Below are positions 42,753 to 44,804 of a stretch of 64,000 nt of DNA, in pieces (the stretch's first letter is position 1; each line of letters starts with the position of its first letter). This DNA comes from Candidatus Falkowbacteria bacterium RIFCSPLOWO2_12_FULL_45_13 (GTDB lineage: Bacteria; Patescibacteriota; Patescibacteriia; Patescibacteriales; GWC2-42-12), in NCBI GenBank assembly GCA_001778055.1, contig MFFY01000061.1, positions 515-64,514 on the forward strand, read 5' to 3'. The notes below the pieces were generated by a model. That model was given only the letters and a program-made list of their open reading frames with translations, was not told the DNA's origin and searched no databases. A program made the translations under genes and the position numbers.

Positions 42753-44804
42753 ATGGCAGACAAAAAGTTATCGAAAAACCCAGCCACCAGTACCTATGAC
42801 GCCGAGTCCATTACCGTGCTGGAAGGCTTGGAACCGGTGCGCAAAAGACCGGGCATGTACATCGGATCAACCTCCGCCTCCGGCCTACATCATCTGATCT
42901 GGGAAGTGGTTGATAATGGCATTGACGAAGCCATGGCCGGACATGCTACAAAAATCGGCGTTACCTTATTAAACAATGGCCTGGTTGAAGTTTCGGACAA
43001 TGGCCGCGGCATTCCGGTGGGCATCCATAAAGTGACTAAAGTTTCCGCCCTGGAAACGGTTTTAACCAAACTCCACGCCGGCGGCAAATTCGGCGATAGC
43101 GGCGGCTATAAAGTTTCCGGCGGCCTCCACGGCGTGGGCGTGTCCGTGGTAAACGCTTTAAGCGAATATCTAAAAGCCGAGGTGCACCGCGAAGGCAAAA
43201 TCTGGCTGCAGGAATATGAGCGGGGCAAGCCGTTAAAAAAAGCCAAACCGATCGGCAATTCAAAAACCACCGGCACCATTATTACTTTCAGGCCTGACGC
43301 CCAAATTTTTGAAGAACTGGAATTCAACTGGGGCACGATTTTAGATCGCCTAAGGCAGCAGGCCTACTTAACCAAGGGCATAACCATTGAAGTGGCTGAT
43401 CGGAGAAAAAATCATCGCCCGAAAAATTATAAATTTTATTTTGAAGGCGGCGTTAAGGCTTATGTAAAATCATTAAACCGCAATAATGCGGTCAAACACG
43501 ACACTATATTTTATGTTGATAAAGAAATCGGCGATTCCCGAATTGAAGTTGCCTTGCAGTATAACGACGGCTTTAATGAAGCCGTTTTGGCTTTTGCCAA
43601 TAATATCATCAATGCCGAGGGCGGCACCCATCTGGCCGGTTTCCGCACCGCTTTAACCAGGACCTTAAATAGCTACGCCCGCGGCCAAAACTTAATCAAA
43701 GAAAAAGATGAAAATTTGACCGGCGAAGACGTCAGAGAAGGCTTAACCGCCATCATCAGCGTCAAACTTACCAACCCGCAATTCGAAGGCCAGACCAAAG
43801 GCAAATTGGGCAACGCGGAAATGAAAACCCAGGTTGAACAAATTTTTGGCGACAGTTTTATGGCCTTTCTCTCGGAAAATCCGCGGGAAGCCGAAGCCAT
43901 CATCGCCAAATGTTTCCTTTCTGCCCAAGCCCGCATCGCGGCCAGAACCGCCCGCGCCTCCATTTTAAGAAAAGGCGCGCTTGAAGGCATGACTTTGCCG
44001 GGCAAACTGGCCGACTGTTCCAGCCGCAAGCCCGAAGAAAGCGAACTTTATATTGTTGAGGGCGACTCGGCCGGCGGCTCGGCCAAGCAGGGCCGCGACC
44101 GTAAATTTCAGGCGATTTTACCCCTGCGCGGCAAAATTTTAAACGTGGAACGCGCCCGGCTGGATAAAATGCTGGCTAATAACGAAATTAAGAATCTGGT
44201 CATCGCCCTGGGGGCGAATATTGATGATCAATTTGACCTGGGCAAACTGCGCTATCACCGGATTATTATCATGACCGATGCCGACGTTGACGGCGCCCAC
44301 ATCCGCACCCTGCTCTTAACCTTATTTTACCGGCATTTTAACGCCATGGTAGGAAACGGCAATCTCTATATCGCCCAGCCGCCTCTTTATCAAATTAAGA
44401 AAGGCGCTGCCATAAAATACGCTTACAGCGATGAAGAAAAAAATAAAATCATCAAAGAGTTGGGCGGCGACGTCGGGGCAATTCGCGAATCGCCCGCCGA
44501 CGAAGAAGGCGAGGCGGGTCTAGAATCGCCCGCCGACGAAGAAGAAACCGAAGGGGGAGGTAATTCGCGAATTGCCCCGACCAAGCGCATCAATATCCAG
44601 CGCTACAAGGGTTTAGGCGAAATGAATCCTGAGCAGCTCTGGGATACGACCATGAATCCGGAAACCCGTATCATGAGGCAAGTCAACGTTGATGACGCGG
44701 CCCTGGCCAATGAAACCTTTGAAATGCTGATGGGCTCGGACGTGGCGCCCAGGAAGCACTTTATCCAGACTCACGCCAAAAAGGTGGAAAATTTAGATAT
44801 TTGA
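42753..44804 (+). CDS. gyrB: DNA gyrase subunit B with a short C-terminal in-frame insertion
   Basis: 683 aa. GHKL ATPase motifs ([27 protein letters not shown]), Toprim [33 protein letters not shown]. The inserted [30 protein letters not shown] is encoded by a repeat element. Confidence 0.95.
44477..44576. repeat. In-frame repeat element inside gyrB with 14-bp terminal inverted repeats (ggcaattcgcgaat / attcgcgaattgcc) and an internal 22-bp direct repeat (gaatcgcccgccgacgaagaag, two copies)
   Basis: Read directly from the sequence. It lies just upstream of the conserved QRYKGLGEM-encoding segment. Confidence 0.7.

Follow-up and report, generated by a model that had tools for sequence, protein, structure and literature searches.

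How does an essential topoisomerase gene come to carry, within its reading frame, DNA that looks like a repeat element? The question is raised by a stretch of 64,000 nucleotides (hereafter the window) of contig MFFY01000061.1 from Candidatus Falkowbacteria bacterium RIFCSPLOWO2_12_FULL_45_13, in which gyrB, the gene for DNA gyrase subunit B, contains a perfect inverted repeat near its 3' end. A sequence-only reading had taken the segment at 44477-44576 for a single element resembling a MITE (a miniature transposable element with inverted repeats), bounded by 14-bp terminal inverted repeats (TIRs) and inserted in frame. We consider a different origin probable, namely that a dimer-like arrangement of repetitive extragenic palindromic (REP) units was built in place within an ancestral disordered loop of GyrB, with a left unit that was inherited, 12 codons that slippage duplicated and a right arm produced through templated conversion, and that the whole is translated and tolerated.

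The gyrB coding sequence (42753-44804, + strand, 683 aa) is identified by its open reading frame (ORF), by matches to GyrB proteins with Pfam domains and to GyrB chains in the PDB (E ~1e-85), and by the exactly identical proteins OGF24276.1 and OGF29887.1. The nearest GyrB relatives (75-89% identity) carry PF02518, PF00204, PF01751 and PF00986, and the window protein has EGDSAGG, the DxD motif and QRYKGLGEM, which together place it as a DNA gyrase subunit B. One close GyrB relative of 1110 aa (P0037; proteins and loci of relatives are given P and L numbers below) holds an intein (PF14890) beside the normal domains. The segment at 44477-44576 lies in frame within gyrB, and since the exact 683-aa protein is present in two Candidatus Falkowbacteria metagenome-assembled genomes (MAGs) and 7 contigs, the element has been assembled reproducibly. 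An independent MEGAHIT contig from the same organism (L002) stops within the element at window position 44513; its positions 8737-8937 equal window 44314-44513 save for one G-to-T mismatch at window 44502, which makes a stop codon, and consequently a truncated 583-aa GyrB (P0026) serves as the cluster representative in the database.

The sequence at 44477-44576 is as the sequence-only reading had it, and the inverted repeat is real and in fact longer than claimed, with perfect 19-nt arms (GTCGGGGCAATTCGCGAAT at 44472-44490 and ATTCGCGAATTGCCCCGAC at 44563-44581, + strand coordinates) separated by 72 nt, the right arm being the exact reverse complement of the left down to its non-consensus GTCG/CGAC. 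The internal 22-bp direct repeat was likewise found to be exact (GAATCGCCCGCCGACGAAGAAG, at 44487-44508 and 44523-44544; no such match is expected in shuffles), and sits within a 36-nt (12-codon) unit present twice in tandem (44469-44540, + strand), the two copies of which (44469-44504 and 44505-44540) match at 28 of 36 positions; the doubled stretch contains ...ESPADEE.... The core ATTCGCGAAT is itself palindromic, and each arm therefore makes up half of a quasi-palindrome of 20 nt at its own place. When gyrB was codon-shuffled 1000 times (spacer of at most 200 nt), the longest arm was usually 9-11 nt and never more than 17 nt, against the 19 nt observed. Neither the inverted nor the direct repeat is explained by chance.

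Folding 44462-44591 as RNA gives -67.7 kcal/mol (z = -5.05), and the DNA fold of the element region has z = -3.7. Both folds include a small inner hairpin (44513-44534, + strand) in which GGCGGG (44513-44518) pairs with CCCGCC (44529-44534), and a comparable added arm occurs in a relative (L141), where CGGCGGGCGA pairs with TCGCCCGCCG. Rfam at gathering thresholds returned three tRNAs only, with no match at the gyrB locus; the element is not a described RNA family. GC content was tried as a marker of the element and proved uninformative, many coding stretches in this genome reaching 65-70% GC.

The repeats fall within an acidic, hypervariable loop of the Toprim/tail region (44457-44582, + strand; residues ~569-610), a known variable-insertion site of GyrB that was delimited by structure alignment, by the predicted local distance difference test (pLDDT) and by relatives. 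These residues align to no solved GyrB, and their position is that of a 170-aa insertion in E. coli (3nuh) and of a ~10-residue loop in M. tuberculosis (5bs8). The distance from PPLY to QRYKGLGEM, 82 aa in the query, is 67-93 aa in all 120 best GyrB matches (Patescibacteria/Parcubacteria, 75-89% identity), as against 40-48 aa in more ordinary GyrBs from metagenome loci. This baseline comes from a scan of metagenome contigs with the GyrB C-terminus, which returned more distant relatives only (at most 69% identical there), and in which no REP units were seen apart from a small palindrome in L098. Since an acidic loop of similar length is present in 120 of 120 of the closest relatives, its length is ancestral, and the comparison of GyrB homologues shows that there is no insertion of 100 bp. 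The loops of the relatives, similar in length, cannot be aligned in sequence. In the AlphaFold model pLDDT falls below 50 for residues 574-610, with flanks at ~80, which lends weak support to disorder given that the model is mediocre overall (mean pLDDT 61.6). The loop is thus an ancestral, acidic, fast-evolving and probably disordered feature of a Falkowbacteria/Parcubacteria clade.

Short peptide motifs also recur patchily in the same loop (GASAGSAQAE, ALRQAQGG, SSAKATEGK and LPAQAGK), with carriers that include P0007, P0009, P0010, P0017, P0020, P0029 and P0030, P0070 and P0078, and P0087 and others; GASAGSAQAE corresponds to an 18-nt indel between L145 and L146. This patchiness suggests that further kinds of short GC-rich inserts use the GyrB loop.

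REP-type palindromes and the history of the loop

By their sequence, the two arms belong to different units, each a copy of a GTAG-tagged REP palindrome. The GTAG-REP superfamily was described by Di Nocera, De Gregorio & Rocco 2013 (BMC Genomics 14:522, PMC3733652), who report head-head (HH) dimers in which 20-100 bp separate the units, degenerate tags (GTMG, for example), and sub-families that show compensatory changes in the stem. The consensus of the family found here is GTAG-GGGCAATTCGCGAATTGCCC-CTAC. Its 20-nt core GGGCAATTCGCGAATTGCCC has 56 exact matches in GTDB (one genome per species) where ~0.5 would be expected, and these span Omnitrophota, Cyanobacteria, Planctomycetota, Chloroflexota, Peribacteria, Patescibacteria, Geobacter and others, GTAG standing 5' of the core in 23 and CTAC 3' of it in 28. 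The 56 core matches, mostly GTAG- or CTAC-flanked, mark a dispersed family in other genomes that agrees with the GTAG-REP superfamily, and a CGAC flank occurs in none of these 56 members. In a viral collection the version with a CATG centre predominates, and one contig has 8 copies in 14.8 kb. The same REP lies within long ORFs in 20 of 95 matches in other phyla, a PriA-like protein among them. Literature searches gave nothing relevant on the strings GTAGGGGC or GGGCAATTC, nor on REPs in the Candidate Phyla Radiation (CPR).

The left REP-like unit (44472-44495, + strand) consists of a GTCG tag and the 20-nt quasi-palindrome GGGCAATTCGCGAATCGCCC, and encodes VGAIRESP; its orthologues, both at the same loop position, are GTAGGGGCAATTCGCGAATTGCCC in L001 and, in L139, a copy that has decayed. 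The right unit (44553-44581, - strand) reads GTCG-GGGCAATTCGCGAATTACCTCCCCC and forms an imperfect stem-loop, the plus strand reading the palindrome in frame 3. The two units face head-outward across a spacer of ~57 nt. The GTCG on both belongs to the GTMG class of tags, and GTAG itself is present in L001, L140, L141, L142 and L147. The left unit pairs at 9/10 positions and the L001 and L140 units at 10/10, all being short G+C-rich stem-loops within the 20-40 bp range. A perfect palindrome GGGGCAATTCGCGAATTGCCCC encodes GAIRELP in one frame and GNSRIAP in another; the query has the first reading in its left unit, as GAIRESP, and the second, GNSRIAP, in its right unit. A TAG stop falls in frame 2 of this palindrome, and the loops show frames 1 and 3 only.

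Automatic three-way alignment with MAFFT told nothing about the right side of the loops, and that part was therefore aligned by eye on codon-level print-outs. The core-protein tree places the query with P0001, P0016/P0036 and P0017, the last a carrier of the second variant described below. L001, the locus of P0001, has GAT-GTAGGGGCAATTCGCGAATTGCCC-GCC at the site of the query's left unit, which includes a 24-nt exact match to the cross-phylum REP. In L139, the locus of P0016, the orthologue has decayed to 5/10 pairs and is followed by one copy of ...GAATCGCCAGCCGACGAGGAAGAAACCGAG. The left unit is thus common to the query, P0001 and P0016, and the stretch duplicated in the query is ancestral loop sequence that L139 holds in single copy, the spacer likewise being orthologous loop sequence. 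Downstream in the loop, both L001 and L139 carry a second variant, ...CAGGTCGCGACCTG... with the core AGGTCGCGACCT (VGSGRRDLPLP and TGRDLPLP, respectively), at the position of the query's right unit. L147 has at this same site, just before the basic tail and in frame 3, a complete third and canonical variant with both GTAG and CTAC (GTAGGGACAGATTGCAATCTGCCCCTAC). Further carriers are L140 (a variant with a CATG centre), L141 (a G:C-stem variant with the extra internal arm, absent from its close relative L144 as a clean 42-nt indel), L142 (another variant, at a different loop position) and L143 (a decayed copy, 7/10 pairs). A non-canonical 3' junction, GCCC|GCCG(G/A)C before an AGEEE motif, is shared; it would fit a single origin or a preferred site, and the differing variants, positions and frames would fit several events.

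Where these relatives have the second variant, the query reads GAAGGGGGAGGT and then AATTCGCGAATTGCCCCGAC. Its right unit is a hybrid, in which a 5' part like the second variant (GGGGGAGGT) gives way to 19-20 nt that repeat the query's own left arm as an exact reverse complement. The left arm's GTCG is copied there as CGAC, a flank that has no counterpart among the 56 core matches elsewhere, and from this we infer that the right arm was written from a local template.

The sequence of events that we favour would run as follows. REP units would first have entered the loop by REP-type insertion; the left unit was inherited, as its presence in the closest relatives shows. Replication slippage may have produced the 36-nt tandem duplication, and the two related palindromes may have interacted locally, by a strand switch within the molecule or by gene conversion, so that the right arm was written from a template. 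Such an event would have yielded a young inverted repeat, perfect because of its youth. The segment would be tolerated because it is translated as a surface-exposed, disordered acidic loop, and most likely it is a neutral passenger with no function of its own. To this extent the claim that repeat-element DNA is tolerated in an essential topoisomerase stands, the DNA being in frame, translated and derived from a dispersed palindrome family; that it arrived as one inserted unit of 100 bp does not.

Several observations weigh against this account. The templated conversion of the right arm is read from a pattern in the sequence. No further copies of the gyrB palindrome were found in the window, nor outside gyrB in ~195 kb of sequence from the clade (this window together with the loci of eight relatives), and the resident REP population that would be the expected source is therefore not seen in the sampled DNA. 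GTAGGGGC occurs four times in these ~195 kb, every time in the gyrB loop, and the canonical GTAGGGGC...GCCCCTAC is absent both from them and from 0.95 Mb of other Patescibacteria gyrB loci. No candidate for a REP-associated tyrosine transposase (RAYT)-like ORF emerged from the window in a crude HUH / Y..NP motif scan, made without a profile search. Additionally, REP units share 19-22 of 24 nt between lineages in which four-fold third positions are 45-65% identical, and such conservation above the neutral level agrees better with units that are recently inserted, refreshed or under selection than with neutral passengers of long standing. Pairing is otherwise decaying, other units retaining 5-8 of 10 pairs as against the two perfect palindromes of L001 and L140, and the loop indels may be gains or losses. 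Possible explanations for the restriction to gyrB and for the conservation are repeated fresh insertion from an unseen pool, self-correction of the hairpin, or selection on structure.

Competing explanations

Selection on a nucleic-acid structure is the first alternative to weigh. The palindromes could be kept because gyrB is regulated by a cruciform in the DNA, by a REP that binds gyrase or by a hairpin in the mRNA, for instance through supercoiling-dependent feedback, and such a role would agree with the confinement of all four GTAGGGGC occurrences to the gyrB loop, with the presence of at least three REP variants in this same loop in different lineages, and with the perfect 20-nt palindromes kept in L001 and L140 despite diverged synonymous sites. 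The variants are also compensatory (A:T against G:C stems, CGCG against CATG centres, GTCG against CGAC), yet the same compensatory variants are found in the general REP family elsewhere. Cleavage of E. coli REPs by gyrase, cited in PMC3733652, adds plausibility. Conversely, most relatives have no palindrome at all, the units have decayed in L139 and L143, and loop position and reading frame vary. We judge such a role unlikely. A 72-nt spacer, moreover, disfavours cruciform extrusion of the long inverted repeat, which counts further against it.

A more specific proposal, which we hold to be improbable, is that the acidic Toprim loop is a recurrent home for GTAG-REPs in clade genomes otherwise without REPs, either through targeted insertion or through retention of a gyrase-binding cruciform REP or an mRNA hairpin that would feed supercoiling back on gyrB; the perfect 19-nt repeat would then be a selected strengthening. 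If true genome-wide, GTAG-REP palindromes restricted to gyrB would link REP biology and gyrase in a new lineage.

The original proposal of a single mobile element, a MITE or a REP doublet (REPIN) of ~100-110 bp with TIRs that transposed whole into gyrB and kept the frame by luck, is highly improbable in the light of the relatives' loops. It draws on the perfect 19-nt arms, on their 72-nt spacing and on the long hairpin that they could form, and movement as a unit is indeed assumed in the literature for REPINs and for REP dimers whose spacer is 20-100 bp (PMC3733652; PMC3116915; PMC3337134). However, L001 and L139 carry the left unit and spacer without the right arm, so that no whole unit is present or absent between relatives; the left unit stands alone at the same site, the spacer sequence is present in L139, the right unit is a hybrid with a 5' part like the second variant, and loop length is conserved across the clade. 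The arms have no target-site duplication beside them (GGCGAC stands to the left, CAAGCG to the right), and elsewhere in the 64-kb window neither the 14-mer (with as many as 2 mismatches allowed) nor AATTCGCGAATT nor the 22-mer occurs again. With the TIR found nowhere else in the window and the loop length conserved in relatives, the single-MITE reading fails on its own terms.

There is very little likelihood of an assembly or amplification artefact, such as a fold-back chimera or a mis-joined repeat. The end of contig L002 inside the element, with its one mismatch, is what might suggest one, but the identical 683-aa protein comes from two MAGs and 7 contigs of several sources, the frame and the conserved C-terminal domain run on across the element, and both flanks match those of relatives. 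Least credible of all is an ordinary acidic linker whose repeats arose by chance or slippage alone, unrelated to any repeat family: low complexity, richness in GAA/GAG and a 36-nt tandem duplication typical of slippage would suit it, but it is refuted by the number of core matches, by the relatives' DNA (in L001 a 24-nt exact match to the cross-phylum REP) and by the 1000 shuffles, in which no 19-nt perfect arm arose. An intein and a Rickettsia palindromic element (RPE) were ruled out by size and sequence.

Other structured DNA in the window

A second piece of structured, GC-rich DNA within a housekeeping gene of the window lies in prmC (38196-39248), at 38762-38878, where a strongly folding, in-frame GC-rich insertion of ~85-100 nt (-0.56 kcal/mol per nt) encodes ENLRQRRPARRQAGISAQGGPASGWRDK. 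Exact 16-nt direct repeats, GAAAATCGAAAATCTT, stand on either side of the insertion (38762 and 38863), which is absent from the prmC of five relatives and unrelated in sequence to the gyrB palindromes. Farther along the same gene, a C-terminal extension of ~20 aa, absent from relatives, includes a 31-nt perfect palindrome, ACTGCCGCCGAATGCCGCATTCGGCGGCAGT (39181-39211), which is probably a hairpin of terminator type, translated here as part of the gene. The prmC genes of relatives have lineage-specific inserts of their own, KITCLPAYRTGRPDRQ in L001 (prmC at 5087-6040) and DLPAQAS in L139 (prmC at 5096-6007).

Between genes lies a near-perfect AT-rich hairpin of ~190 nt with nested inverted repeats (55205-55400; DNA fold -64.8 kcal/mol, z = -14.9). 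It stops 26 nt short of tRNA-Leu(caa) (55426-55512), on the upstream side, and looks more MITE-like than the gyrB feature. The gene for tRNA-Ala (24286-24359) is bracketed by a perfect 19-nt inverted pair (24261-24279 / 24381-24399), and that for tRNA-Pro (24141-24214) by a 31-nt inverted pair that is 81% complementary (24046-24076 / 24242-24272). A perfect GC-rich palindrome of 30 nt, TCCGCCGGAGGCGGATCCGCCTCCGGCGGA, occupies 41390-41419, in the intergenic region between an FtsW-like gene and a 321-aa ORF upstream of gyrB.

Comparison with known systems

The locus offers a clean, dissectable case of repeat-element DNA that has become protein-coding in an enzyme essential to a CPR organism whose genome is reduced, with a local evolution, by inheritance, slippage duplication and conversion between palindromes, that can be read from relatives. 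The Toprim insertion site of GyrB is on this evidence a tolerant "sink" for repeat DNA. For annotators and phylogeneticists who use gyrB as a marker it calls for caution, given that the loop has non-orthologous, repeat-derived sequence and breaks some assemblies.

Like MITEs, the feature is short (~100 bp), of non-coding origin and has terminal inverted repeats (44472-44490 / 44563-44581). In contrast to MITEs, it has neither a target-site duplication nor a second copy, its interior is host loop, and its arms are halves of two palindromes.

The 170-aa insert of E. coli GyrB folds as a domain and, according to the literature, contributes to the function of gyrase. It occupies the identical GyrB position, from the PPLY strand to QRYKGLGEM, and the site therefore accepts large lineage-specific inserts (3nuh). 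The query insert differs in being a short, acidic, low-confidence loop that is coded in part by repeat DNA.

The closest resemblance in architecture is to the REPs of PMC3733652, with which the query shares a tag of the GTMG class followed by a G+C-rich stem-loop of ~20 nt. As in HH dimers, the tags point outward, the spacer is within 20-100 bp and one large stem-loop can form. The same survey reports intragenic REPs, many in replication and repair genes, with dimers that encode 20-30 aa and are probably neutral in flexible loops, and it cites gyrase cleavage at E. coli REPs as gyrase targets; the query, too, lies inside an ORF and encodes ~30 aa. It differs in that no resident multi-copy family appears in its 64 kb or in the relatives' flanks (high copy number is not seen in the window, which is 64 kb of the genome, or in the ~195 kb of clade loci), and no RAYT was seen. 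Furthermore, its host belongs to the Patescibacteria (CPR), a group outside that survey, a gyrB target was not found in the supplement, and its right unit was apparently made by local conversion instead of insertion. REPINs are replicating populations served by RAYTs (Bertels & Rainey 2011, PMC3116915; PMC3337134), in contrast to the single locus here, where no second doublet was found and the spacer is orthologous host loop shared with relatives, which is not the pattern of a unit that replicates as such.

Finally, RPEs (Ogata et al. 2000, reviewed in PMC10969869) are likewise in-frame palindromic repeats in housekeeping genes that are tolerated on surface loops. They are, however, single elements of ~100-150 bp with a conserved peptide, Rickettsia-specific and high-copy, whereas the query units are of 24-28 nt and of GTAG-REP type, with no sequence relationship to RPEs, and the resemblance is functional only. 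The gyrB case is one of intragenic GTAG REPs, a kind already known and now seen in a CPR gyrB, and functionally RPE-like.

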